Source: Eledone cirrhosa | Taxonomy: Eukaryota | Assembly (NCBI GenBank): GCA_964016885.1 | Contig: OZ024741.1 | Span: 327,360,001 to 327,424,000 of the forward strand | Direction of reading: 5' to 3' | DNA: 64,000 nucleotides | Part shown: positions 338 to 64,000 of the stretch, piece by piece | Layout of the letters: every line of letters starts with the position of its first letter | Position numbering within the stretch: the first letter of the stretch is position 1 | Position numbers and translations under genes: made by a program | The notes under the pieces: model-generated | Database searches by the model: none | What the model saw: the letters and a program-made list of their open reading frames with translations, nothing else | What the model was told of the DNA's origin: nothing

Positions 338-423
<86 letters not shown>

Positions 424-429
<6 letters not shown>

Positions 430-1044
430 AATATAGTGAATTTTGCAATACACTCTATGCTTAATTAAAAGCTTTTTGAAGACCTTACGCTATTGATTTA
501 GAGTAGTGACAGTCTCACTTACTTTAAATTTTCAGCCAACAGTGGGAGATAAAGCTGACAGAGCTCTGGTTCGTACTATTTGGTACTTATCAAAGCTAAG
601 TACTCCACCTGTTTGATGAAAATCATGAATGTTTGATTCTTATAGATTTGTAGTAATAATCAGGAACTGATTATACACTATATATACATTCATATGTATA
701 TCGTTATTTCAGACCACCAATTCTAATTTTCAATTTCTGCTTGACCGGCAACCGCTCTGTATAATCAGTTCCTGATTATTACTAGAATTCTATAAGAATC
801 AAACATTCATGATTTTCATCAAACAGGTGGAGTACTTAGCTTTGATAAGTACCAAATAGTACGAAACAGACCTCTGTCAGCTTTATCTCCCCCTGTTTGG
901 TGAAAATTTAAAGTAAGTGAGACTGTCACTACTCTAAAACAATAGCGTAAGTTCCTCAAAATGCTTTTAATTAAGCATACAGTGTATTGCAAAATACACT
1001 ATATTTACATTCATATGTATATCGCTATTTCAGAGTACCAATTC

Positions 1045-1051
<7 letters not shown>
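424..1051. mobile_element. HHR family A fold-back element in (TA)n: minus arm 424-677, plus arm 675-1051 with ~320-nt terminal redundancy
   Basis: 424-677 is the reverse complement of ~758-1010; 675-730 recurs directly at 995-1051; (TA)n on both sides; an HHR motif in each arm. Confidence 0.85.
838..882 (+). ncRNA. Type I hammerhead ribozyme, U3-A8 core variant (family A)
   Basis: AGCT-TTGATAA-GTAC caaata GTAC-GAAA-CAGA cc TCTG-TC-AGCT: stems I, II and III all pair; GUC cleavage triplet at 876-878. Confidence 0.8.
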
Positions 1052-1078
<27 letters not shown>

Positions 1079-2419: not shown

Positions 2420-3993
2420 GTTACATATAATATTATTTATAGTTATGTATACACTATATACAACTATAAACATGAAAGTTCAGTAATATATTACTAACTT
2501 ATTATCAGTAAGAAAGTTAGATCAATGTAAAGACGAGATGTTTTACAGAGCCGGAATATAAGTTACACAATATTCAAAGCTATGTTCAAATCATGTTATT
2601 GCTGACAATCGTTTCTTCCAAACTATCGTTTGTTTTCATCGGAGCATTAGCAATGTTCGTACATATAATTAACCTCCTATTCAACTGAACAATCATATAG
2701 ATACATGGATAGTAATGTTGTCAACAGCAGTTTCGTATTTACAGAGTGGAATGGATGCGACATAGATTTCAAGAGAATTGTACAATAATTAAAAAATTAA
2801 AAGTAAAAAGGCACAGAGTTCAATGGATGCGACAGAGATTAGTATAACAATTAGAGACAATAAGGTAGAAAGTTACTCGTGAAATGAGGACACTAGCAGT
2901 ACATATGTAAGCGTATAGAGAGTGCAAATGCAATAGGCATATACAGCAAGGAAACAAGCAATGGTACTAGGCATATATAATTTCTGCGAGGCAAATGTAT
3001 CACATAAAACCAAATAGGTTTACAAGTAGGCAAAGCTGTTTTTGTATTAAAATTATTAGTTTATGGTGGATGTAGTGTGATAATTGTTTCTGTAAAGTTC
3101 AAATGTGTATGTGCTGAGAGTATCAATGTTATTGCTTTCTTTTCCATTACATTGGCTATGTTGTATTTTAGTGAATGTGTTTAATCAGTCACAGCCATGG
3201 ATTGTATACCGGTCCTAATATATTGTTATCCGGGGTTCGATTTGTTGTAGAGTGGTTCCTCTAACGGTTTAATTTCCGGGAGTGAGTTTGATCTATATTA
3301 AGGGGAGGTAATACGAAAGGGGAGGTAACTAACGATTACATTGTAAATGAATTTAGAAAAATGTAAAGTTGTTTACAGCTCCAATTAATTAAAATTATTT
3401 GTGTTGCTATACAGTATGTTGTTTTATAAGCGAATCCCTTTTATATAATGCTATTTGTTTGTGTTTAATTTTAAATATAATCTATTTTACATTAAAGGTC
3501 TCATTATATTGTAATCTATCCATTACAGAATAAAGTATATGTAATGTATAGGAAGAGGGTAAGAATGTATAGTTGTTTACAGGTGTAATTAGTTAAATCT
3601 CTTGTGCTATTAATATACATTACATTATTTTATAATTGAATCTCATATATATAATGCTATTAATTTATATATTTATTTATAAATACAATTTATTTTCCTA
3701 TACTACATTAAGTGTCTCATCATATTATTATTTATCCATTCCTGAATATAATATAAGCAAGATATAGTGGTTATATTAAATGGTGTTAGCTTTATGGTTA
3801 TTCCACATTGTAAATACGAAACTGTTGTTGACAACAATAATATCCATGTATCTATATGCTTGTTCAGTTGAATAGGAGGTTAATTATATGTACAGACATT
3901 GCTAATGCTCCGATGAATCCAAACGATAGTTTGGAAGAAACGATTGTCATCAATAACATGACTTGAACATAGCTTTGATTATTGTGTAACTTA
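2420..3993. mobile_element. Penelope-like 3' remnant (minus) with inverted HHR-bearing terminal repeat (family B)
   Basis: 2560-2742 is the reverse complement of 3808-3993; the minus strand near 2980-3000 reads ICLAEI, like the PLE endonuclease C-terminal CxLCLxE motif; internal ~204-bp diverged direct repeat at 3365-3760; TA flanks. Confidence 0.7.
3900..3958 (+). ncRNA. Hammerhead ribozyme motif with CCGAUGA (U4C) core, family B; second copy on minus at 2594-2652
   Basis: TGCT-CCGATGA-ATCCAAAC gata GTTTGGAA-GAAAC GATT GTC; the minus copy supplies the matching AGCA stem I. Confidence 0.7.
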
Positions 3994-4045
3994 TATATAT
4001 ATATATATACACGCACACACACACACATATATATTCATGTATATA

Positions 4046-6286: not shown

Positions 6287-7150
6287 GAAAACAGAGAAAT
6301 TAATGTGAGCAAGAAGCCAACAGTAATTCATACATATAAGTGACTATTACGTCAAGATGGAAAATATTTAACGTAAGATATGGGAAAATAATTCAATCTC
6401 AATTCAAAAAAAGTCAAGACAGAAATTTTATCCACAGATTTTGTGTAATCCAGGGAAAAAACCTATAGAGTCTTAACTCAGAATAAAATTAAGAGTAAAT
6501 ACCTATCCTTCAATTTGGAAAAATCTACACATGCTCTATATAGTCTTAAAAAGACTATTTCACGAAACTTTTCAGTCGGGTTAGTCACGGTTGGAGTCGT
6601 TCATCAGTAGAGCTCAACACGATAACTAAGTAGCACAGCTAAAATATGCCAAAAGGGAATTTAAAAGCAGGCTGGTTTCACGTCGTGTGGAATTAAGATA
6701 ATAAACACACATGGAGAACAGGGCTAGTGAGGTCAGAATGAGACGAATGACTGTTTACAAGAAACAGCAGTCAAAACATTCCGAAAAAAAATCAACAAAA
6801 ATTATGTGGTTCAGCATAAATCAAAATACAGAGAGAGAGAGAGAGATAGAGGGAGAGAGAGAGATAGCGAGATAGATAGATAGATATGTTTCTTTTATTT
6901 GCCACCAGGGCATCAAAAGTGGGACAAGTACAATGGGGGGAGTTTACAAAACAAGGCGTCCTCAATAAGGAGGAGGCAATAACAATATATAAAAATAAAA
7001 TAAAATATAACAAAAAATATAATTTATAACAAAGTCCTCAATAGAGTGGAGGCGCCTTGGGGGGTCGCACACACCCCCGAAAAAAGTGTGCAACCCTTCT
7101 CCTCGGGAGCACAGAGAAGGGGTGCTCCCTTGGTGTTTCATCTTCCTCAC

Positions 7151-10100
7151 CTATAGTCTGATGTAGAGTGAAGGCCCATTCACACGGGCCATTCTCGCCA
7201 CTTTCACCCATCTTTCATAAAAACGGCTGGGGTGCAGCACCTCTCTCTCCATCCTGATCCTTCTTCCGAAATGATATCGGAAGAAACGGACCAGTTGTTG
7301 GCCAGAGAGAAAGGTGTCTGACCTCAGTCCTTTCAGACGCGTCCACCATACAACCTCTTTCGCCATGGATATTACGCACAGAAACACCGCCTCTCCTTCG
7401 TTTTTGAAGAGGGGAGGCGGCTTGATCGTTACAATAGACTCGGTGGTCAACCGGATCGGTCCCACCCTTGACAGCAGTTGTTCGACATAGCCCCACAGAT
7501 CGGCAATGCCCGAGCAGTGTACCAATACGTGTGCAACCGTTTCCTCGTCGCACACGCATCTGGGACAGATCTTTTTCGATGGGTCCCTACCCGGGCGCCC
7601 GTGTCTGTAGAGCCTTTCTCGAACGGGCAGAGCCCTTCTGTAGCATTGCCAGGCCAGGGACCTCTGTAAGTTATCCATGAGTCCCGGGCTGAATGTCCTA
7701 CCGAACAGGTTGGCCAGTTCGTCTTCCTCCATGCCTAGGGCTTCTCCGAGGGTGTCGTCGCACCTGCTAACCACCAGCCCTCTATAGAATGACGAGGTGG
7801 ATTCTCCACTGACAGCCGGGTCCGCCTGCCAGAGAGCCGTGAGCGCCTGGGCACACACGGTGTGCCAGGCGCCCAGTTTTCTCGGTCTTTGCTTGACCCA
7901 GGATTGCAGCTCGGTGAGTGAGACGAGTCTGGGAAAGGTTCGCCTCACAAACGGGGCCCACACCGGTTGACCGGAGAGGAATACCTGAAGGTGCCGTAGC
8001 CTTAATGCGTGTTTACGTATCATTAGCCACGGCATCCCCAGCCCTCCTTTCGAAGGGTATTGACGGCAGATGGATCTCCTCACCATAGGAACCCGCTTCT
8101 TCCAAAGGAATTGGACGAGTGCGCGCTCCATTTTGGCGAGCGTTTCCCTTAGGCAAGGCACAACGGTCAGGTGGTAGTAGATGACGGACGCTATATAAGT
8201 GTTCGCCACCTCCGCCCGACCTTTCAGGGACAGTTTGCACTCGGCCCACTTCTGGGTCAGTGCAAACACCCTGTTCGTCACCTCACCCCAGTTCTTCTCC
8301 ACCTGGAGGTCTGGTCCGAACCAGACCTCGAGCAACTTCACCGGGCCCTCCGTCCAGCGCCCGACGACGCCATCGGAGGGCATCGATCTGCCCCTTCACG
8401 TGCCGAGTTGCAGACCGATCGACTTGTCCCGGTTCAACTTAGCCCCTGTAAACCTTTCGTACTCCTCCAGTAAGGTGCCGATCGTCCCGATTTCCGAGGC
8501 CGTGGACACCATTACTATTACGTCATCGGCGTAGGCTGACACAGCTTTCCGCAATCCCGGTTCCAACGGGATGCCCTGCAACAACTCCAGCTTCCGCAGC
8601 AGTGGCTCTAGAGTCACTACATACAGAAGGGAGGAGAGAGGGCACTCCTGTCGGATGGACCGCGCGATTTCGAACGGCTCCGAGAGGTAGCCGTTCACCT
8701 TGACCCTAGAGCAGATGCGGCTGCTGTGCATGGCATTGATCCAGCTCCTGAAAACGGGTCCGAAGCCTGCCGCCGCTAACACCGCGTCCAGGTAACCATG
8801 GTCGACCCTATCGAATGCCTTAGATTGATCCAAGTTGATCTGGGCCCCACCAAAGCCGGGTTCGTTCCCAACCCTCTCTATGATGTATCGTATGAGGTGG
8901 AGGTTATCGTGGATGGACCTGGACGGGATAGCACATGTCTGCGCATCTCCCACCAGGTTGCCCACGACAACCGCCAACCTCTTTGCTAGCACCTTGGCCA
9001 AAATCTGTAACTCTGTATTTAGCAGAGTTATGGGCCTGAAATTATTTATATCGTATCCCTTGTTCTCGTCCTTCCTCACTAGCGTGACTACGCCCTTGGT
9101 CACAGCACAGGGAATTCTCCCGTTCTGTTGCCAGTTGCAGTAGACCGCCTCGACGAGTTTGGGGAACAAGTCCGGCATAGCTAGATATAGTTCGTATGGA
9201 AGACATTCGAGACCCGGGGATTTGCGTTTGCCGCATTGGCTCAGCACGTCCTCTATCTCAGCGGCTGAAATCGGCTCCTCGCAGGTTTTCGCCTCCCAGG
9301 CCGTCGAAGTATGGACCGAATTCCACGTCCCCAACCGGCCCACCGCCCCTTTCGAACAATCCGGCAAAGTGCTTTTGAAAAGCCTCGCACATCTGCTTAG
9401 GTTCAAGGATGACCCATCCATCCTGGTCTCGCAAAGACCGGATAGTGGATCTGCTCCCTCTTTTGGCTTCTGTCACGCGGGCCCAGCTAACAGCTTTGGT
9501 CCCCTCGTTTCCCAGAGCACGTATTTTGCTTCGGACGATGCAGCCTTCGTGTTTCGCGTCGAAGAACTGGCCCAGGGCCGTTCTCGACGCTAGCCCTCTG
9601 GCCACGTCGCCGCTTCTAATTGCCTCTTCTGCACTATCTACCAACTCCCCTTCCTTCCTATTTCTATTGGAAGCTAACTCCTTACTAAATTCTATAGAGA
9701 CTACTCTAATCTCTCTTTTGAGAGATCCCCACCACCTGCTGTTGACGATGGCGCCCGTCAACCGCTCCTTAACTAAAGTGCTAATCCGGTTCCTGTAAGC
9801 CTTACTTGCCGGTAAGGACAAGTTGAGCTTCCAGTAACCGGGTCCCTGTCTATGAGTTCTGTCAAGGTTGACCATGCAGGTCACTAATTTGTGGTCTGAA
9901 TAGCCAACCATGCGCATTTTTGGACAACTTAAAAAGTCCTTATCTTTAATTCTAACTAAGAACCTATCTAGGTAAGACCTAGATGATCCGCAACGATTTG
10001 CCCAAGTCCAGGTTGGCGCAGTCGGAAAATCTAGTCGATATCTATCGGCCAGGTCAAATCGACCGATTAACCCTTTGAGGCTATTACACCCCTCTCTATC

Positions 10101-10571
10101 GGGACAGGCCCCTACGTAGTCCCAGCGTGCATCTAGGATACCATTCCAGTCCCCCACTAATAGCAAGGAGTGGGACGTCCCTACAAAAGTCTCCAGACGA
10201 TGGAAGAAGTCCGGCCGCATTGATCCGAAAGGGCCGTAGGCGGCTACCAACCTAAACGCTCCGCCTTTACCACTGCCAAGGTCCAGAACCACTAGTCGAC
10301 CCTCCGGGTCCAAATGTACCATCTGTGTTGCGAGACCCAGATGTTTTTGCAGCAGAACGACAACTCCACCCCCACCTCCGGGCTGACAGAGAGATGCGTG
10401 CATCTCAAAGTCATCAAAGGTGGGGGCCAGCTGTCGCACGTTGCTGATCCGGGCCTCGCAAATAACCATCACATCTATACGTTGTGACCTGAGGTCATTT
10501 AGAAGCATTGCTTGCTTCCAAGTTGAGCCCAGGCCACGCGCATTTAAACAGCCTACTCTTAGCATAGCCAT
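7151..10571 (-). pseudogene. LINE ORF2: AP endonuclease, reverse transcriptase, C-terminal zinc knuckle (one frameshift near 9290-9300, one in-frame stop at 8396)
   Basis: APE motifs LNARGL, GDWN, SYLDRF, SDH; RT motifs NFRPITLLN, LDQSKAFDRVDH, RQECPLS, YADD; C-terminal CPRC..EETVAHVLVHC. Confidence 0.93.
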
Positions 10572-10595
10572 GTTGGTGGTGAAGAGAAAAGGCAC

Positions 10596-12236
10596 TTACC
10601 TCTCTGCGTCCCGGGTATCGGGCAGCACAATTTCCATTAGGGTGTGGGATGGGTTGATGGGTGGGGTGGTGGTTTGTGGAAGTGTAGGGGCATCAGTGTG
10701 TTGTGTGGTTGGGGAGCTTGGAGTTGTGTGGGGATTTGGCGAGGGGGTGGGGTAGTTTTTTAGGAGGACGCGGTTAATGGGCCCGACGCAGGGGGGACCC
10801 ACGTCCTCTTTAAAGTTGTTTTTTTAAGTTTTATAGGTGTCCTGTGGGGCCTTAATCATTTTGAGGGGGGGGGGAAATCCCCTGCCTGGGTGAAGTTAGG
10901 CCCTTGTGTTTTTATTAGATTGTTGTTGTACACAATGTTTAACAGTTTTTTGTTTCTTGTGTTTATGTATGTGTATGCATGTTTTTGTTTTTGTGTGGTG
11001 TTTTTTGTTTGCTGTTGTTGTGAGCTCTTTTGTGTTGGTGTCAGTGTTATGTTTTGGGGAGGGGTTGTTTTCATTTGTGTGTCTGAGGTGTGTTTTCTTT
11101 TTTTTCTTTTGATTGTGTGGAAGTGCTCCTCCTCGTCTGACGACGAACTAGGGTCATCTTCGGCGTTGGAGGGGAGGGGTATATTTTCGGGTTGTGTTTG
11201 CGGTGCGGGTGTTTTGGAAATTGTTTTTGTTTTTTGAGTGGACGGGATGGGTTGGACATTGTTTTGTTTTGGTTTGAGCTGTGGTGGTTGTTTTTGTAGT
11301 GGTAGTTGTGGTGATTGTGTTGGATGTGCAGTTGTTGGTGGTGTAGGCAGGATTGGGGTTTTCTTATTAAGTTGGGGACACACAGCCCACAGGTGACATC
11401 TGGTTCCGCAGAGGTAACACGAGGGCCGTCTACCCTCAACGGTAATGTTGATGAAGGTTAGATCATCCAGTATGACGCGTTCAGGGATCTGGGCGATCCT
11501 TTCGGGCCTCATTTGAACTATAAGTTCGAGGCTCGTTCCACTGAACGCGTCACCCAATGCCTTTCCCATGGACACCAGCATGTCATCCTCCAGGTCCAGG
11601 AAACCTGTCAAAACCCACCATATGTCCATAATCGGCAGGATGGTGTGGATTTTTATTTTTTGTGTTCTTCTACCCATGTACGTAGGGTAGAAGGTGCATG
11701 CGGTGGATGTGATTGGTTTGATGGACAGTTTCACTGCTGTGTCCCTGTCCTTCATGAGAATGGATAGACTCCCGTAGAGTCTATTCTTCTGAATGAAGGT
11801 GATGTCCTTCATGACGTCTTTTAAAACCAGCTCTATCTCACTCTGTGATGGTTGAGCTGGTTTTTTACTTTTGTTCGAGATTGTCCTAAACATGACCGTG
11901 TTTTGGAGTCTCTGGCTTTTTAGTTCCGGGGGGGGGGGGGATTGTGAATGAACCATTTTCTCCGTACACTATATATTTTTTCGCATCTGCCAGTAGCTCC
12001 TTCGCTTTGGTTATATCTACTGGCAGATAGTCGAGGGTTTTCCTTGTCGTCTCGGCGAAGGAGAAATTTTGTTTGTTTGTGTTGTTGTTGTCGTTGGTGG
12101 TGTTGTTGTTATCATTGTTGTTGTCACCGTTATTGGTCTTGTTGTTGTTGTTATTGTTATTGGTGTTGTTTTCGTCCGTCGCATTGTTGTTGTTGTTGCT
12201 GTTGCTGGTGCCGTTGGTTCTTTGGGTTGTTGCCAT
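10596..12236 (-). pseudogene. LINE ORF1 (gag-like) split by frameshifts at two poly-C/G runs
   Basis: Segments 12236-~11935, ~11935-~10870 and 10802-10596 abut; CX2CX4HX4C knuckle CYLCGTRCHLWAVC; Asn-rich N-terminus; stop lies just upstream of ORF2. Confidence 0.8.
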
Positions 12237-13244: not shown

Positions 13245-13870
13245 GATATTAATAAATGGATACTATATTTATAAAACGATATTTATTTCATTATACATAT
13301 TTCAAGGATACCATGTTAATTTATGTTAACTCAACTTAATATGACATGACTTAAGGTTTTCGTTCTCTCCCCCTCTCTCTATCTCTATATTTCTCTCTCT
13401 TGATTTTTTCTCTCTGTCTGGTGGTTGGATATCTCTCTGTTGTTTTTCTCTGTTTTCTTTTTTTCTTTTTTCTTTCTTCTTTTTTCTTTATTTATCTCTC
13501 CCTTTCTTTTCTCCACTTTTATCTCTCTCGGTTTCTCTCTCTCTCCGTTTTTTTCCGTCTCCTTAACATAACGACTTACAAAAATAAACAAACCACTATC
13601 CTGATGTCTTCCAAAAGTAACGGTCGCATTTTGAAAGGGTACGTCAATGTTTATTTATAAAACTGGTATATATTGTATTTTGTCTGATGAAGGCATACCA
13701 TAATTTAACATGGTATCCTTGAAATATGTATAATGAATTAAATATGGTTTTATAAATATAGTTTCCATTAATAATATCGTATATTTACTCCAAATACATG
13801 TCGAGTGCTTTATATCAGTTATAAAAATATTTGCTTGTTGTATCCCAACAATTTAAATAGAACTTTTGCA
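13242..13870. mobile_element. HHR family D element with short inverted arm
   Basis: 13243-13325 is the reverse complement of 13699-13780; plus-strand HHR CTGATGA(13684)-AGGcATACCAT..ATGGTATCCTT-GAAATATGTATA; TA flanks. Confidence 0.8.
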
Positions 13871-13954
13871 TATATATATATATATATATACATTCATGCA
13901 TAAATACACATACACACACAAAGACCGACACACACACACATGCACACACACACA

Positions 13955-14546: not shown

Positions 14547-17104
<2,558 letters not shown>

Positions 17105-18706: not shown

Positions 18707-19200
18707 AGCTGTCAACACATATATAAATATATATGCAAAAGTTCTATTTAAATTGTTGGGATACAACAAGCAAATATTTTTATAACTGATATAAAGCACT
18801 CAACAAATATTTGGAGTAAACATACGATATTAACAAATGGAAACTATATTTATAAAACCATATTTATTTTATTATACATATTTCAAGGACACCACGTTAA
18901 AATATGGTGTGCTTTCATCAGACAAAATACAATATAGATCAGTTTTATAAATAAATATTGACATACCCTTAAAAAATGCAACCATTACTGTTGGAAGCTC
19001 CCGGATAGATGACTATCCGGGAGCTTCCAACAGTAATGGTTGCATTTTTTAAGGGTATGTCAATATTTATTTATAAAACTGATCTATATTGTATTTTGTC
19101 TGATGAAAGCACACCATATTTTAACGTGGTGTCCTTGAAATATGTATAATAAAATAAATATGGTTTTATAAATATAGTTTCTGTTTGTTAATATCGTATA
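18707..19200. mobile_element. HHR family D near-perfect fold-back (arms 18822-19008 and 19013-19199, 4-nt loop)
   Basis: ~187-bp inverted repeat centred on CCGGATAG-atga-CTATCCGG; left arm extends a further ~115 bp; TA flanks. Confidence 0.9.
19084..19163 (+). ncRNA. Type I hammerhead ribozyme (family D); mirror copy on minus at 18858-18937
   Basis: ~15-bp stem I with one bulge (CTATATTgTATTTTGT / ATAAAATAAATATGG), CTGATGA, stem II AAGcACACCAT / GTGGTGTcCTT, GAAA, quasi-palindromic stem III, AUA triplet. Confidence 0.85.
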
Positions 19201-19974
19201 TATATATATATATATAGAATAAGGAAAAGCGAAGTAGTTTCAGATGTTCAAGTCTTTTAATAATAATGCTGTGATATATATTTGAATGGCGACAGTGGCC
19301 ACACTGTTCCGTGCGCCAGTGTCGCGACATTGTCAGACAGCTTCTTACATAATAAGGTTATGTTTCCGAGATAATCCAAATTGAATCGACATGGGAACGG
19401 ACGAAGTGTGTGCTCTTGTGTTCTTCATCCATTCCCCTGTGAGTACCAATTCACACCCACCGGTCTGCGCAGGCGCAGGTCCGAAGGAAGTTGACCAATA
19501 GCTACCGCAGATTTCAACGAAATTCATTTAGTCAGTTCCCCCTCTCAGCCAAACAATGACCCATTCAGGCCTGTAATATAGCTTACTGCTAAATACCCCG
19601 GCTGTGGCAGTCAGTCGAAAGCCAGTGGGGATGAGAAATTGTGAGTATTTATAGGTCTCAATACTACATCTCACTAAGAATGGACAGTATAGTTGACCAT
19701 CAACCTCTAAGAGAAAATATACTTAATTCTATGTATCATGGTTTCACGGTGGAAGTTGGAAATTAGAACTAACAATTAAAATTTAAAATCGAATATCAGA
19801 AATCAAATATTAAATATTAAAAATTAACAATTAAAAATTAATAATGTTTCAAGTGAGAATCTGGATTGAGGTGAGTAAAAAAATATAGATTGAAGTGAGT
19901 AAATAATATGCAGAGAGATGTTTAAGTAAGAAGTTTTGGAATGGGTATTAATGTTACAGTTATATTATCTATAT

Positions 19975-21229
19975 ACTGAACGATAGTACCGATTGTCCAG
20001 CCAAAACGCTCACCAACATGGAGCGCGTGCTCTTCCAATTCCTTTGGAAGAAACGTGCTCCTTTGGTAAGAAGATCCATCTGCTGCCAACACCCTTCAAA
20101 CGGAGGGCTGGGGTGCCGTGGCTGACGATTCGCAAACACCCGCTCAGACTGCGGCACCTCCACGTATTTCTCACCAGACAACCGGTGTGGGCCCCATTCG
20201 TGAGGCGAGCCTTCCCACGACTCATCTCGCTGACCCCGCTGCAGACCTGGCTCAAGCAAAGACCGAGGAAAATGGGCGACTGGCATATCGAATTTGTTCA
20301 GGCGCTCACAGTCCTCTGGCAAACGGACCCGGCGATCAGTGGAGACTCCACTTCGACATTCTATAGAGGGTTGGTCCGCAGCATGTGCGACGACACGCCC
20401 GGAGAAACTCTAGGCGTAGAGGAGGACGAACTGGCCAGCCTGTTCGGTAGGACCTTAAGCCCGGGACCAATCGACAACTTCCAAAAGTCCCTGGCCTGAC
20501 AGTGCTACTGAGGAGCTCTACCGGTTCGAGACAAGATCTACAGACACGGGCGCCCGGGTAGGGACCCTTCGAAAAAGATCTGTCCGAGATGCGTGCGCGA
20601 CGAGGAAATCGTCGCGCACGCATTTGTACACCGCCTGGGGGTTACTGACCTGTGGGGCTATGTAGAACGACTATTGTTGCGGGTAGGACAAATCCAGTTG
20701 ACCACCGAGTCCATTGTCATGATCAAACCGCCACCCTCCTTCAAAAACGAGGGAGAGGCGGTTTTCCTATGTGTTATGGCTATGGTGAAAGAGATTATAT
20801 GGTGGACGAGGTTAAAAGAGCTGAGGTCAGACACCTTTCTTTCCAGCGAGCAACTGATTCGTTTTTTCAAATATCATTTTGGAAGAAGAATCTGGATGGA
20901 GAGAGAGGTGCTGTATCCCAGCAAATTTTATAAAAGGTGGGTGAATGTGGCAAAGCTGACCCGAGTGGTTGGGCCTTCTCTCTATATAAGCCTGTAGGTT
21001 GAGGAAAAAGAGGAAGATAGGAAGGGAGTACTCACTCTTGGTGCTCCTGGAGATGAGGGTTGTACATTTTTTCGGGGTGTGTACAACCCCTGTGTAACAC
21101 CTCCCACCTATTGGGGATTTCAATTGTTATTTGCTATTGTATTAATAGTTTCATTTTCATATAACTGTATGTAAACTCCCCACTTGGATTTGTCCCCTTC
21201 TTTTATGCCCTTGTGGCTAATAAAGAAAT
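19975..21229 (+). mobile_element. 5'-truncated, decayed copy of the same Tx1-like LINE family
   Basis: Translations match the 7151-8383 ORF (PVWAPFVRR, KPPPSFKNEGEAVFLCV); 3' AATAAAGAAA; candidate 10-bp TSD TTATCTATAT at 19965-19974 and 21230-21239. Confidence 0.9.
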
Positions 21230-21423
21230 TTATCTATATCACCCTCATCTCTGCTCCTCCAACTTATTACTAATATTGCTTTCATTCTATTTATATTATT
21301 TGTTCATCTATTTATAAATACTAGCGCACTGCATCATGAACACAGAGCAGTATTGGTCGGATATCGACTGTAATTAAAATCGAGTGACGTGGCTAATAAA
21401 ATAAATTTATCTATCTATCTATG

Positions 21424-22175
21424 AGTTGGAATAGGATGAAACGAAATTTCATTTCTCACTCTTAGTACGGCACTTACTTAAATGTAAGTATGTATGTATA
21501 CGTACATACATATATATATACAGACGTACAGTAGCATGCATATATATATATATACATATATATATATACACATACAGGTACACATATATATATATGTACG
21601 TATCAGTTTAGCGGACGTTTATTATAACGCCCGCTTTGTCCGTTTGTAAACAAACGGACAGCCTGATTTATGCCGTACGGTGTTAAGGCAACCACGTCAC
21701 CTTTTTGATCATCACTGACACAGGAACGATGTACTAGTTTCAAGCTTCTTAGCTATCATCAGCACCGTATACCCTTCTGCCAGATGGTTGAACGTTCGAA
21801 AGTATATACTTTCCTTATGAAAATTAACGGCTCAGCAGCCTAATTTGCATATCGAGTGAGTTCAGTCGGCCAGGCGCCCCTAAAACGATAAGTTGGAATA
21901 GGATGAAACGAAATTTCATTTCTCACTCTTAGTACGGCACTTACTTCGAGCGTTCAACCATCTGGCAGAAGGGTATACGGTGCTGATGATAGCTAAGAAG
22001 CTTGAAACTAGTACATCGTTCCTGTGTCAGTGTTGAAAAAAAGGTGACGTGGTTGCCTTAACACCGTACGGCATAAATCAGGCTGTCCGTTTGTTTACAA
22101 ACAGACTAAGCGGGTGTTATAATAAACGTCCGCTAAACTGATACGTACATATATATATGTGTATCTGTATGTATA

Positions 22176-25543: not shown

Positions 25544-25545
<2 letters not shown>

Positions 25546-25762
25546 CGAAGGAAATGTGGTAAGGAACCAGGTGGACCATAACGCACCAAAGTACTCAATA
25601 CTTAGGGTAGTAGAGTGGGTAATAGGAACAAGTAAGACCCCGACGGCTGAGCTCAAGCCGTTTCGACTGCTAATTCTGGACTGAATGACAGAATAAATTT
25701 TCATTCAGTCCAGAATTAGCCGTCGAAACGGCTTGAGCTCAGGTGTCGGGGTCTTACTTGTT

Positions 25763-25766
<4 letters not shown>
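25544..25766. mobile_element. Family E fold-back insert in (TA)n
   Basis: 66-bp arms 25623-25688 and 25701-25766; homologues at 39788-39983, 49626-49700 and 53768-53971. Confidence 0.85.
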
Positions 25767-25818
<52 letters not shown>

Positions 25819-28589: not shown

Positions 28590-29098
28590 TAGGAAGCCTA
28601 TATTACCATGTCAAGCACAAGCAAGGGGGACAACCGTCTATGCCTTTTAGGCTTAACTGGCCTTCGTCAGGACTGTCCCCCTTGCTTCTGCTGGACATCA
28701 CCAGAGGGCGTTAGCCCCCCGGTGTTTGGATAGCTACGGCTTCCTAAAACTGTATTTCTTTGGAGATACGAAATATTTATACATATTGTATAAAACTATG
28801 CTTGAAGCGAAATCCTATTTCTTTTTTATTATAAGTTGAGCCAACTAATGCAGCTTCATATGCAAATGCGATTAATCACCTCATTTACGCAGACGAGAAA
28901 AGTATATATTCTCAGCTGTCTTCTAGTCCAGCAGTCGCAAGCGGCGGGAGAGACCGTCCTGGCTAAGGCCAGTTAAGCCTGAAATGCATAGACGGTTGTC
29001 ACCCTTGCTTCTGCTGGACATCACCAGAGGGTGTTAGCCCCCCGGTGTTTGCATAGCTACGGCTTCCTAGAACTGTATTTATTTGGAGATACGAAGTA
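28590..29098. mobile_element. HHR family J: short minus arm plus ~1.3 monomers of 323 nt
   Basis: 28674-28775 is repeated at 28997-29098; 28607-28673 is inverted relative to 28956-29021; HHR remnants in both arms. Confidence 0.82.
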
Positions 29099-29108
29099 TA
29101 TATATATT

Positions 29109-29190
<82 letters not shown>

Positions 29191-32399: not shown

Positions 32400-34230
32400 T
32401 TTTTACTATTATTATTATTAGTTACTAGCTTTGAAATAGTGGAACAAGAATCTATGGTAATGTGGACACGTGTAGAAGATCTCTGATTTCCTATTTAGTA
32501 GGCTAAGGTTAGAGTGAATAATATTTTTAGACTCGAGAATGCAAAGGTTACGAAATTTGTTAGGTCGTCTATATGAAGGGGCCTTAGCTATCACTTCCCA
32601 TTTTAAGGTATATGGTATGTTACTTGATTTTAATGAGTGTATGTATGTGGATAGTAAGGTTACGTTGCTAAGTTTAGGGTTTCTGAACGAATGAAGGTGT
32701 CAAATATATCTGGTCTTAAAGCTATTCGATGTTGAGCCTATATACTTTCGAGATATGATTAACAGTTACAGTACGGGAATAGACAATGTCTTTAATTAGG
32801 CAGTTCTTATTTAATAGACATGTCTTGTTAGGCCTACAATTACAATTGTTTTGTTTACTAGTATACTGGTTAACGGGGTATGCGTTTGAGTGGTTGTTTC
32901 TGTTTCTACTTCTAGTATTATGATTATGGTGAGTATTATTACTATTGGTATTATTAGTGTGACTTGCTGTATGGTTTTGTACTGTGTTATTGTTCAGATT
33001 ATTTCTATGCTGGACATTATTACTTTGGTGTAATTTGAAGAACTCTTTAATCTTTCTATTGTTGGTGTTGGCTATATGATCTGCTATGTTAGGTGTGGTG
33101 GAGTAGGATATGTTAATTGTGTTTTTGTTAAATAGATTGTGGTATTTATGGTTAGTTGGGAAGTTTTTGTCTAGAATAGAGAAGAAAGCTTTAGGTATGT
33201 TTGTTGATACATTTAAGTTGCGCGGAGGGTTAAAGAATGTGCTACTTCTCCTTCTATTCTTCTTATGCTTTCTTATTCATACTACTGTTTAGTGTGGTGT
33301 TAGGTTCCTTCTTATCTATGTTTTTCTTTCTGTGGTGTTTCTTAGGGTTATTGCTGTGGTGTAATTTAACTTTTTTATGGCGCCCTTTGTATAGGAGTCA
33401 GGATTTTCAATACTATGATCATATTTACTTTTATTCATGGCCATGGTGTGTGAAATTATATTAGGTTGTCTATGGGTGGTTGAAGATTTAGGTTTAAATT
33501 TAAATTTATCTCTAAGGCCGGAACGGACTAAGGCTTCATTATAGTATTGGTAGTTACGATTAAATGTATTCTCGTTGTAAGAAAGGCTAGAGATTCTATT
33601 AAATACCCCTTTAAAGATTAAGGTCAGTACAGATTTGAAGTGGTTAGAGTTGGTATTAACATAGAAAGGCTTTTCATTAGGTTTATTATAAGGTGTGTAT
33701 TTTTTAGAGTCTAAGTAGAGAGTGACGTCCAGGAAGTTAACATTTTCGCTGTTTTTATCTAAAGTGATACCTAAGTTATAGTTTTTAAATATTTTATGTA
33801 ATTGTTTTCTAGTTCTTTCTATATTTAACGTTTTATAGTCTAAGAGGAAGAGTGCGTCGTCTCGGTAGAGGCCACCGTTGAGGTAAGGTAGGTTCTTGTG
33901 TATTTCGATTAAGAGAAATAGACCTACTAAGTCGGTTACCTGTGCCGAGACACTAGATCCCATGGTGATATCAAAGTTGTTCGGTGTATTCTTGCGGGTC
34001 CATAGTTGGTCTTCAAATTTAATTATTGTTTTCCTGGCCGCAAGGATTATATCTACCTGGGATCTATTGAGTTCAACATTGTTCATCGCCATTATTAATG
34101 CTTTATTTAGGAGGATAGGCGAAATGGAAGTGTAGTAGGAGTTTATATCAAATTGCATGAATTTCTTATTATTATCCTCATTAATACCACTAAACCATTC
34201 GATTACTTCACTAGTGTTTCCAAGAGGTTA
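32400..34230 (-). pseudogene. Penelope-like element RT plus GIY-YIG endonuclease, 5'-truncated and frameshifted
   Basis: QFDINSYYTSI, FDITMGS, GGLYRDDAL, NFLDVTL and KPNEKPFYVNTNSNH in ORF 33316-34158; downstream frames FFNPP..KAFFSILDKNFP..ISYSTTPNI, CNC, YIGST, NLCILE. Confidence 0.9.
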
Positions 34231-39235: not shown

Positions 39236-39622
39236 TGGTATTAGTTTTGGTGCTCTGAAATAGCGATGAATACATGAATGTATATATAGTATATTTGGCA
39301 ATATACTGTATGTTTAATTAAAAATATTTTGAAGACTATTCACTGTGAGTTTAAAAGTCGTGACTTAGTCAATAACTTATTCTTGGCAAAAGCAAAGGAG
39401 AGTAATTGACAGTCCTGTTTCCCGCTCATTACTATTCACCCCTTCGCTTCTGCTGGATTCTTATAGAATTCCATTCATATTTAAGAGCTGATTAATCAGA
39501 GCGGTTACCGGTTCAGCAAAAATTTGGTATTAGTATTAGTGCTGGGAAATATAGATGTATACATGAATGTATGTATAGTATATTTGACAATACTAATACC
39601 TAATTCTTGCAGTATATTGCCA
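39236..39622 (-). mobile_element. Diverged relative of family A with ~290-nt terminal redundancy
   Basis: 39236-39304 recurs at 39525-39593; shares CTGATTA..CAGAGCGGTT.CCGGT with A; HHR 3' half GAAACAGGACTGTC on minus with the 5' core deleted; short inverted tail at 39610-39622. Confidence 0.65.
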
Positions 39623-39787: not shown

Positions 39788-39979
39788 AACAAAGGAATTT
39801 TGGCAAGGAACCAGATGGACCATAACGCACCAGAGTACTCAATGTTTAGGGTAGTAGAGTGGGAAATAGGTAAAAGTATGACCTCGACGGCAGAGCTCAA
39901 GCCGTTTCGACGGCTATTTCTGGAGTCCAGAAACAGCCGTCGAAACGGCTTGAACTCTGTCATAGGGGTTATACTTTTT

Positions 39980-39983
<4 letters not shown>
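39788..39983. mobile_element. Family E fold-back copy
   Basis: Arms centred on CTGGA-g-TCCAG (39925); same outer ends as 25544-25766. Confidence 0.82.
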
Positions 39984-40028
<45 letters not shown>

Positions 40029-41183: not shown

Positions 41184-46988
<5,805 letters not shown>

Positions 46989-47289: not shown

Positions 47290-48257
<968 letters not shown>

Positions 48258-49625: not shown

Positions 49626-49965
49626 AACGAAGGAAATGTGGTAAGGAACCAGGTGGACCATAACGCACCAAAGTACTCAATACTTAGGGTAGTAGAGTGG
49701 TGTCGGATGCTTAAAGCGTCCGTATGCGGTAGGCCGTTTGAGCACTCGATCCTCTTACAGAGCAGAGTATAATATCACATAAGAAACGGAGAACCAGTGG
49801 TGTGACGAGTTAAAATTTATTAGACATATTACAATCGTTTCTCTGGCGACCAGCTCGAGGCGCGATCGATATAGGGATCGAACCTGACTCTGAAGTTGCA
49901 AGCTCCCCAGATACGTCTCGATTCTTCGGAACGGAGTTTCCAAATGCTGGAAACTCTGCTTCGTG
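49626..49965 (-). mobile_element. Mosaic insert made of an E end, a G-like segment and F, with a short fold-back
   Basis: 49626-49700 = E; 49727-49770 resembles 31497-31541; 49773-49944 = F reversed; GAGTTTCCA-aatgc-TGGAAACTC fold-back. Confidence 0.7.
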
Positions 49966-52345: not shown

Positions 52346-52414
<69 letters not shown>

Positions 52415-52418
<4 letters not shown>

Positions 52419-52674
52419 GAATGTATATATAGTGTATTTTGCAATACACTGTATGCTTAATTAAAAGCATTTCAAAGACTTTATGTTATAGTTTTAGAGT
52501 AGTGACAGTCTCACTTACTTTAAATTTTCAGCAAACAGGTGGAGATAAAGCTGACAGAGCTATGTATCGTACTGATTGGTACTTATCAAAGCCAAGTACC
52601 CCACCTGTTTTCTGAAAATCATGAATGTTTGGTTCTTATAGAATTTATAGTAATAATCAGGAACTGATTATACA
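52415..52674 (-). mobile_element. HHR family A arm
   Basis: Matches 424-677; minus-strand HHR TTGATAA-GTAC..GTAC-GATAC (A14 mutated). Confidence 0.85.
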
Positions 52675-53712
52675 GTGTGTTTCTAAATATATTGTTAATA
52701 ACTCCCTCTGGTCGAGCAATCTTTGAAGTGTGGGGACAACTGGAAAGCTTCCATTACTCATACTTCTAGCCTTCTTCACCACCTCTTCTGCGGCCTCGAT
52801 ATGAATACCCCCTCCGCCTCCGTGGTATTTTCTTCGTGGTTATAAGTGGCTTAGCTCTGTTTCTCGACCGTTATATCGCGTGACTATCCCCCCCTCCGCC
52901 TTTTGGGATTCTTTCTCACGTCGTGTAGACGCGTTCTTGAGACTAGTAAAATGAGGTATCCTCTTAATAAGTCGGCAGACCTCGCAGGGACTCTATATCT
53001 TTATGATATATTGTTTTTGTTTATGCCACGAAACTACGTAGTCGAGGAATTTAGGAGCAGTTTAGGTATGATACATTTTATTACTAATTATATCTAAATG
53101 TTTCTTCTCTCTTCATAATGTATTTTTAACTCTGATACTGGTTCAGTCTAGTTCAACTGAATTGGTCTGTCCCGGTCATTCATTGAGCAACATCGGTGAA
53201 GTTGGCACCCTTAACTCACAGTTGGGTGCGGATGCATTCATGTATATATGTGTGTGTCCGCATGTATCTGTGTGTTTCTAAATATATTGTTAATAACTCC
53301 CTCTGGTCGAGCAATCTTTGAAGTGTGGGGACAACTGGAAAGCTTCCATTACTCATACTTCTAGCCTTCTTCACCACCTCTTCTGCGGCCTCGATATGAA
53401 TACCCCCTCCGCCTCCGTGGTATTTTCTTCGTGGTTATAAGAGGCTTAGCTCTGTTTCTCGACCGTTATATCGCGTGACTATCTCCCCCTCCGCCTTTTG
53501 GGATTCTTTCTCACGTCGTGTAGACGGGTTCTTGAGACTAGTAAAATGAGGTATCCTCTTGATAAGTCGGCAGACCTCGCAGGGACTCTATATCTTTATG
53601 ATATATTGTTTTTGTTTATGCCACGAAACTACGTAGTCGAGGAATTTAGGAGCAGTTTAGGTATGATACATTTTATTACAAATTATATCTAAATGTTTCT
53701 TCTCTCTTCATA

Positions 53713-53718
<6 letters not shown>
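52674..53718 (+). mobile_element. HHR family K: ~1.75 tandem monomers of 595 nt (retrozyme-like)
   Basis: 52674-53122 is repeated at 53270-53717 with few substitutions; one HHR per monomer. Confidence 0.85.
53554..53643 (+). ncRNA. Type I hammerhead ribozyme, U3-A8 core, long stem II (family K); upstream copy at 52959-53048 has G5A
   Basis: TCCTC-TTGATAA-GTcGGCAGAC...GTTTaTGCCAC-GAAACTACGTAGTC-GAGGA; palindromic stem III ACTACGTAGT, GUC triplet. Confidence 0.8.
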
Positions 53719-53767
<49 letters not shown>

Positions 53768-53772
<5 letters not shown>

Positions 53773-53970
53773 ACGAGTAGGAGCCCGACGGCTAATCTCA
53801 AGCCGTCTCGGCGGCTAGTTCTGGACTAAATTAGTCCAGAATTAGCCGTCGAAACGGCTTGAGCTCAGCCGTCGTGGTCCTACTCGTTCCTATTACCCAC
53901 TCTACTACCCTAAGTATTGAGTACATTGGTGCGTTATGGTCCATCTGGTTCCTTACCACATTTCCTTCGT

Positions 53971-53971
<1 letters not shown>
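53768..53971. mobile_element. Family E fold-back copy (opposite orientation)
   Basis: Arms centred on CTGGACTAA-a-TTAGTCCAG (53830); same outer ends as the other E copies. Confidence 0.82.
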
Positions 53972-54047
<76 letters not shown>

Positions 54048-63488: not shown

Positions 63489-64000
63489 ATCATGGATTAC
63501 TTTACTGATTACAGAAGAGAGTGATCATGAATTACTTTACTGATTACAGAAGAGAGTGATCATGGATTACTTTACTGATTACAGATGAGAGTGATCATGG
63601 ATTACTTTACTGATTACAGAAGAGAGTGATCATGGATTACTTTACTGATTACAGAAGAGAGTGACCATGGATTACTTTACTGATTACAGAAGAGAGTGAT
63701 CATGGATTACTTTACTGATTACAGAAGAGAGTGATCATGGATTACTTTACTGATTACAGAAGAGAGTGATCATGGATTACTTTACTGATTACAGATGAGA
63801 GTGATCATGGATTACTTTACTGATTACAGAAGAGAGTGATCATGGATTACTTTACTGATTACAGAAGAGAGTGATCGTGGATTACTTTACTGATTACAGA
63901 TGAGAGTGATCATGGATTACTTTACTGATTACAGATGAGAGTGATCATGGATTACTTTACTGATTACAGATGAGAGTGATCATGGATTACTTTACTGATT
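63489..64000. repeat. 35-bp tandem minisatellite, >14 copies, runs off the window
   Basis: Unit GTGATCATGGATTACTTTACTGATTACAGA(A/T)GAGA, head-to-tail with no spacers. Confidence 0.95.

Follow-up and report, generated by a model that had tools for sequence, protein, structure and literature searches.

Head-to-head twin arms of a hammerhead-bearing repeat in Eledone cirrhosa: a likely non-LTR retrozyme and the probable rolling reverse transcription of its RNA

For the non-LTR retrozymes of animals, Cervera and de la Pena (2020, PMC7229834) proposed that primed RNA circles are copied into tandem cDNA with Penelope-like elements (PLEs) as helpers. The same authors had already proposed ligated circles as the templates of more-than-unit copying, and they described hammerhead pairs lying 100–700 bp apart on opposite strands as well as a U3-A8 core as a variant of the PLE hammerhead (2014, PMC4209133). 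Retrozymes were later linked to pLTRs, and local amplification was suggested, by Li, Clavereau and Pollet (bioRxiv 10.64898/2026.07.22.740005). The PLEs themselves form partial tandems with an inverted 5'-truncated copy and a tail that is often present at one end only; Craig et al. (2021, PMC8557442) ascribe the tail to endonuclease resolution and term the route to tandem and inverted insertions undefined. Frangieh et al. (2024, PMC11167929) reported two internal start sites, cutting and extension of both strands and a predicted dimer.

Our window, the whole stretch of 64,000 nucleotides from Eledone cirrhosa that was analyzed (GCA_964016885.1, contig OZ024741.1, positions 327,360,001 to 327,424,000, forward strand), holds a repeat, here called element A, that resembles both systems. 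Like the animal retrozymes (PMC7229834; bioRxiv 10.64898/2026.07.22.740005) it has an AT-rich noncoding monomer of about 300 nt with a type I hammerhead and occurs both dispersed and as tandems that range from partial dimers up to long arrays, and the genome also contains autonomous PLEs. Like the PLEs it combines a partial tandem with an inverted arm, a tail at one end, an AT-rich target, two internal starts of reverse transcription and a hammerhead with palindromic stem III and the U3-A8 core variant, but it has no ORF. In contrast to the published animal retrozymes, the ends are resolved here, as two fixed starts, (TA)n targets and head-to-head twin arms (the word 'inverted' occurs 0 times in PMC7229834). 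Circular RNAs were demonstrated for the animal retrozymes (PMC7229834), whereas A is known from genome sequence alone, and while 24 of 57 Xenopus retrozyme families are described as matching known elements, nearly all of them PLEs, A shows no sequence similarity to the PLE families compared. The earlier note on this DNA had likened the copies to retrozymes, and A is indeed of the retrozyme kind; its anatomy is also that of PLEs, which that note left unnamed. The circle model is already published and A is a family of known kind; in the literature searched, which was mostly non-subscription, we found neither haplotype-based evidence of rolling nor a one-site-per-arm rule with counts nor head-to-head retrozyme arrays.

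Element A and its neighbors in the window

Element A consists of a (TA)n tract, a short arm, a long arm standing head-to-head with it and a second (TA)n tract (Table 1), the left edge of the short arm being given as 413/427 because positions 413–426 are indistinguishable from the TA tract. The arms are inverted copies of each other (94% over 265 nt) and the element is noncoding, with no ORF of at least 120 aa over 413–1051. As in retrozymes, the GC content is low (32% over positions 1–2000 of the window), the monomer of 321 nt falls within the range of 150–450 bp, and a head-to-tail tandem is present. This tandem had been described earlier as a repeat of about 56 nt after about 320 nt, and self-comparison bears it out with 54 of 58 positions identical at a period of 321, the best among 200 dinucleotide shuffles reaching 34/58.

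Table 1. Positions in the window of element A, the other short families and the broken PLE.
Feature	Position	Strand	Remarks
Left (TA)n target tract of element A	374..426	.	sequence
A short arm, 0.83 monomer	413..677	- (RNA sense on -)	starts at monomer position 30 (upstream site)
A long arm, 1.18 monomers	673..1051	+ (RNA sense on +)	downstream start site at 1051
58-nt run-on into second round, copy of 994-1051	673..730	+	self-comparison and shuffles
29-nt tail, bounded by the fixed start sites at 1022 and about 1048-1051	1023..1051	+	
Right (TA)n target tract of element A	1051..1078	.	
Type I hammerhead of A long arm	838..882	+	core UUGAUAA (U3-A8) at 842, predicted cut after C878 (878/879)
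Hammerhead of A short arm	553..597	-	GAAA core changed to GAAC
Family C twin-arm copy	21421..22148	.	left arm 21421-21946 (1.13 x 467), right arm 21945-22148
C hammerheads	21727-21767; 21978-22018	-; +	motif scan
Family J	28608..29109	+	arm 28674-29109 (about 1.37 x 323) and degenerate inverted piece 28608-28696
J hammerhead	28953-28996	+	core mutated in window copy
Broken autonomous PLE (RT and C-terminal endonuclease pieces)	32430..34221	-	relative of intact 832-aa family elsewhere in genome
A-relative, period 289	39237..39592	-	window copy lacks the hammerhead core (read by eye) and stem II
Older A arm, upstream site, joined to K	52409..52675	-	17 differences/266 from the majority letters of the family
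Family K arm, 1.75 x 595, young	52675..53718	+	
K hammerheads	52959-53048; 53554-53643	+	first with core changed; second with U3-A8, long stem II, predicted cut after 53638

The hammerhead of the long arm lies within a longer hairpin at 815–905 (z -5.4, pattern scan and folding). Since it is found on the plus strand of the long arm, the RNA sense ends at the (TA)n side, so that a reverse transcriptase would start at 1051 and reach the predicted cut after 173 nt. Among 76 loci with the full motif the whole core is intact in 57 and the U3-A8 pair in 73, and stem II covaries across the loci, one pair being U-A in 63 and C-G in 9 of them and another C-G in 65 and U-A in 4. A young relative of A, described below, carries the canonical C3-G8 core. 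Judged by sequence, the A RNA likely cleaves itself to monomers. Hammerhead motifs are also present in families C, J and K, the fold of K by itself being nonsignificant (z -0.9); an Rfam scan of the window returned no family at the gathering score. The earlier description of the ribozyme as internal holds for the long arm of A; the copy at 39.2 kb has no core, that of J is mutated, and the first unit of K and the short arm of A carry core substitutions.

The same terminal redundancy had been pointed out in four further copies, and all four were recovered: 59 nt at a period of 467 in C (21421/21888; previously 55 nt and about 468), 119 nt at 323 in J (previously about 100 nt at 323), 67 nt at 289 from 39237 in the relative of A (previously about 290 at 39236) and 449 nt at the reported period of 595 in K. 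Inside the C monomer lies a (TA)n tract of its own, which varies in length and at which one of the start sites is located. We could rule out that its 59-nt repeat is a captured flank, as it is family sequence (328 candidates) and part of the (TA)n-containing monomer. At 52675 the older A arm stands head-to-head with the young K arm and no TA lies between them. An origin of this join in one event was not accepted, the A arm being diverged at 17/266 positions and the K arm at less than 1%. Elsewhere, too, some unpaired arms of A, K or J (about 9 of 53, by eye) adjoin arms from other short families. Such joins reflect either a subsequent insertion accompanied by a deletion or the use of two different RNAs at the same break. 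In contigs of four sequencing runs of unspecified kind K closes to a 595-nt loop in 3 of 4, a result that tandem DNA would give likewise.

The window also holds repeats of other kinds. Another twin-arm hammerhead family is present at 13595–13880, 18735–19204 and 45875–46116 (cores 13684, 19100 and 18921) and occurs about 19 times per 0.75 Mb. The commonest short TA-flanked family (25545–25767, 39789–39984, 49627–49700 and 53767–53972; about 31 per 0.75 Mb) has an internal hairpin and gave no hammerhead in the motif scan. Hammerhead-like cores were seen in further repeats at 6539–6613 (-) and at 41272–41478, 42461–42687 and 46765–46926. Positions 41272–43750 form a local tandem duplication of about 1.19 kb, 99.5–100% identical in its unique parts, which could be recent or an assembly artefact. 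A non-LTR retrotransposon of another type at 7061–11968 (-) is near-complete with breaks and shows a gag-like ORF, an AP endonuclease and an RT (by eye), and a 3' fragment of it lies at 19987–21090. A 172-bp tandem repeat at 47340–47976, which is joined to an A arm at locus L002, a 35-bp minisatellite at 63489–64000 that continues past the window end and a DNA-transposase-like fragment at 15965–16686 (by eye) complete the list.

Start sites, far ends and paired arms across the genome

A first look at the genome gave at least 2,686 A candidates, and a random sample of 75 arbitrarily placed 10-kb stretches contained two close and two distant A-type elements. Our collection of A arms was compiled from three similarity searches, two random hits and one array and comprises, with duplicate loci dropped, 143 arms at 79 loci; the loci were picked by similarity rank, not at random, and one search set is mostly made of copies with shared rare words and thus not unbiased for length. 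The same rare-word selection probably accounts for the single young A-relative units without variant 47C.

The downstream site is the start of 62 of the 141 unclipped arms; another 61 begin 29 nt upstream of it and 18 elsewhere, and a TA-type flank, scored with a loose pattern, adjoins 107 of the 123 canonical starts. The far ends, in contrast to the fixed starts, spread smoothly from 40 to 1015 nt in the 121 canonical arms outside the array. Only 3 of these 121 end within 5 nt of the predicted cut (4.1 expected), and among the 52 less-selected arms that reach 160 none ends at 168–178. Copies range from 0.1 to 14 units overall, with arms of up to 2.9 units and one array of 14.3 units, and arms longer than one monomer make up 20 of 44 in the least length-biased sample, which is common but not the rule. 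With a fixed start and a free far end, the 1.18 units of A in the window are therefore not special. The earlier note had asked whether genomic copies are circular permutations with variable start points and had taken them to be read slightly more than once around; neither idea was supported, as the starts are fixed at two sites adjoining (TA)n and 'slightly more than once' is one point on a smooth range from 0.1 to 19 rounds. Reverse transcription through the hammerhead site, on the other hand, is supported: the site was passed once by 99 of the 121 arms and twice by 18. Arms of the latter kind hold the two hammerheads of a retrozyme, whereas the copy in the window has one per arm on opposite strands. 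Partial tandem, fixed 3' ends and variable 5' truncation are likewise found in PLEs, as are the inversion of the second arm and the tail at one end only.

In 83 of the 87 twin pairs with two canonical starts there is one start site per arm (binomial p 1.5e-20), a count that omits non-canonical starts (A 13, J 6, K 2, PLE 1) and pairs clipped by the locus edge. It is composed of 36/39 pairs for A, 15/16 for J and 8/8 for K, and of 7/7 further K pairs, 8/8 pairs of the young A-relative and 9/9 of an autonomous PLE, all counted by eye. This almost strict rule differs from the PLE of Frangieh et al., for which no strand difference in the start site was seen. The tails between the two sites measure 29 nt in A, about 46–49 nt in J and 164–165 nt in K and the young PLE, compared to 30–40 nt in the published PLEs.

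Where the two arms meet, the 40 A junctions analyzed show an overlap of 1–37 nt in 26 cases, filler in 13 and a flush join in one, and overlaps of 21 nt coincide with the hairpin that flanks the hammerhead. The arm pairs at L032, L043 and L044 are not contained in each other, from which it follows that each arm needed its own templating. Fold-back copying of one arm off the other is thereby ruled out for these non-nested loci; moreover, the longer arm shows no association with the start site in A (17 vs 19).

Templates of the tandem copies

Variants are shared within loci far more than between them. For A the shared-variant fraction is 0.30 between units and 0.27 between opposite arms against 0.07 between loci, for K the values are 0.56 and 0.59 against 0.06, and for J 0.16 and 0.30 against 0.06. 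The clearest case is the young A-relative with a 310-nt unit that was found through the random sample and followed at 20 loci chosen off the hit list plus L275 (L175 was dropped as an assembly duplicate of L335). It forms head-to-head arrays of 19.3+10.8, 7.1+5.6, 7.3+5.2, 8.1+3.4 and 10.7+5.2 units, which begin at both sites beside TA and whose units are 99.5–100% identical, although long arrays might be smoothed by assembly. The first of them is the 9.3-kb array of L335 (G000:C3:190012701-190022700), the left part of which occurs twice in the assembly around a gap (L175). Over the 21 loci there are 14 haplotypes, each present in at least 75% of the covering units of its locus, and at L339 a private change is found in 16 of 16 covering units on both arms.

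Arms of this relative cross the predicted cut 160 times, and the 5 nt on either side of it contain 0 of the 34 indel columns, a weak test since with so few indels about one was expected by chance; 1 of 32 far ends falls within 5 nt of the cut, without a pile-up. The older A array of 14.3 units begins at the upstream site beside TA and has three to four haplotype changes common to its units. Its divergence is star-like (8–16% pairwise), with neighbors marginally closer than chance (0.124 vs 0.129, p 0.036). Taken together, the sharing of haplotypes, the scarless crossing of the cut and the absence of a far-end pile-up favor rolling reverse transcription of a monomer circle. For most insertions we therefore consider it probable (about 0.65) that the A RNA is cleaved to monomers, circularized and reverse-transcribed round the circle at a DNA break, as far as genomic copies can tell.

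In the strongest competitor, reverse transcription copies transcripts of existing arrays that are linear and uncleaved, or else multimeric circles; it starts internally on them and reads through into the next unit, the arrays being renewed occasionally. It is suggested by locus K119, where both arms hold different units in identical order, and by those A variants that the two arms have in common at one round, of which 14/54 are missing from another round compared to 1/41 in the mirror test (Fisher p 0.0015). Both observations mean that some loci need mixed multimer templates or later conversion between the palindrome arms, and this minority fits one or the other. Unprocessed RNA was also the dominant substrate in vitro, and a multi-copy mRNA was proposed (PMC11167929). 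Existing long arrays could act as parents, and 9 of 18 full-ORF PLE arms stop 226–427 nt into the second round (by eye), some of them on hammerhead palindromes, which could possibly mark a transcription start. Against this, the number of units cannot rise by linear copying alone, and the 14 haplotypes, several with private changes, would each need a long homogeneous parent of their own. As the copying of a linear template can never make the number of units larger than it was in the parent, the repeated fixation of private changes would need a routine step from monomer to multimer, of which rolling on a circle would be the simplest form. The divergence of A is, in addition, alike for same and different rounds (0.051, 0.053, 0.055). 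We thus regard such templates as unlikely to be the general explanation, while they probably explain a minority of loci. Of the circular or multimeric templates proposed in the earlier note, one monomer copied repeatedly is what the haplotypes common to units point to, and mixed multimers suit some loci better.

A linear cleaved monomer, on which the reverse transcriptase jumps precisely from the 5' end to its own 3' end so that the functional circle stays unligated, would predict the same homogeneity of haplotypes, and stem I together with the long flanking hairpin could hold the cut ends together. Template jumps of other non-LTR reverse transcriptases are usually imprecise, which weighs against this route, as do the 160 crossings without an indel near the cut and the lack of a far-end excess there; we therefore judge it improbable, even if the bacterial DRT2 system is reported to copy a noncoding RNA repeatedly into tandem cDNA (PMC12039810).

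Still less probable is that the tandem units were made at the DNA level, either from a small DNA circle or, once the element had inserted, by slippage or unequal crossing-over. Local amplification through unequal crossover was raised for retrozymes (bioRxiv 2026.07.22.740005), and a patch common to the adjacent units 9–10 of the A array and one apparently duplicated K119 unit are of this kind, but near-identical arrays of 3–19 units are found in both arms at several independent loci with an exact start at the start sites, and the old A array is star-like without near-identical neighbors. That the redundancy is the fixed terminal repeat of a longer LTR-like or autonomous element, the case named earlier as fatal to a circular template, is hardly credible: a lone copy of 1.18 units does resemble R-U-R, but unlike the fixed repeats of LTR retrozymes the run-on is continuous in length, the hammerhead is of type I and not III, and no longer parent was found in two PLE families and 50 PLE loci.

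Penelope-like elements and the proposed route

A search with the broken PLE of the window gave more than 100 near-identical matches to a family with an open frame of 832 aa; a first look at the genome had yielded 40,219 RT candidates, of which 143 were scored. The translated frame shows the motifs RWR, DKT, CxCX5C, CxxC and CxH and a C-terminal endonuclease. With the Hydra-clade PLEs of Craig et al. (2021) it agrees in an RWK-like motif, DKT, CxCX5C, CxxC/CxH, the C-terminal endonuclease and the TA target, whereas its 4.2-kb unit exceeds the '<3 kb' given for that clade, to which it may be assigned by motifs only. Pfam and PDB sequence searches with the ORF gave nothing significant, and its 85 homologs are unnamed or called 'hypothetical protein'. 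The young intact copies (L264, L267–L273 and L279–L286) have a unit of 4199 bp, (TA)n targets, a 164-nt tail and a hammerhead-like motif with a CCGAAGA core. Their twin arms start from two sites 164 nt apart and reach 2.4 units, and private variants are common to the arms and units of a locus. An identical 9-nt motif follows both of these sites, and the start sites of K, 165 nt apart, each have a similar 6-nt motif within a few bases downstream (both by eye). The spacing of the PLE sites fits K but not A, and K may be a passenger of this PLE. Two further pieces in the window belong beside it, a second PLE endonuclease remnant at 43750–44900 and an inverted pair at 2481–2752 and 3800–3996 that is about 70–74% like the end region of the young PLE.

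Element A is likely a non-LTR retrozyme and non-autonomous passenger of PLEs. In the search for its autonomous partner, blastn against 50 PLE loci gave only separate neighboring insertions, and no similarity between A and the pLTR of an autonomous PLE was seen in the two PLE families compared. According to the model that we favor, a locus with two same-strand hammerheads would be transcribed, and the RNA cut and ligated to a monomer circle. A dimeric PLE protein would cut both strands within (TA)n and its two active sites would prime at the two start sites, on the same RNA or on sister RNAs. Each reverse transcriptase would then keep rolling up to its stopping point, after which microhomology or a short filler would join the 3' ends of the two cDNAs. 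The 58-nt redundancy of A would be where one of the enzymes stopped during its second round. Extended to PLEs and their retrozyme passengers in general, the idea reads that one dimer on a single RNA circle uses two programmed start sites, is twin-primed from the cut (TA)n strands and makes up to 19 independent rounds. We put this forward tentatively and rate it somewhat below even odds. Speaking against a circle, a Poseidon PLE used unprocessed RNA in vitro and showed no difference between the strands in its start site (PMC11167929), and 8 of 9 Xenopus retrozyme dimers failed to cleave in vitro (bioRxiv 2026.07.22.740005).

As the in vitro work on PLEs favors linear RNA and the retrozyme papers favor circles, the young insertions described here bear on the choice, and the value of the analysis lies in this genomic evidence and in a testable rule of twin priming. 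The one-site-per-arm rule spans four short families and the intact PLE, and the intact 832-aa PLE and the K RNA, which share the site spacing of 164–165 nt, are a ready test pair. If the general idea is true, twin-primed rolling-circle reverse transcription would, as one mechanism, account for pLTRs, for inverted arms and the tail on one side, and for retrozyme satellites arising in one step. A eukaryotic reverse transcriptase would then write two long tandem cDNAs into one break, and tandem satellites would be born full length via reverse transcription.
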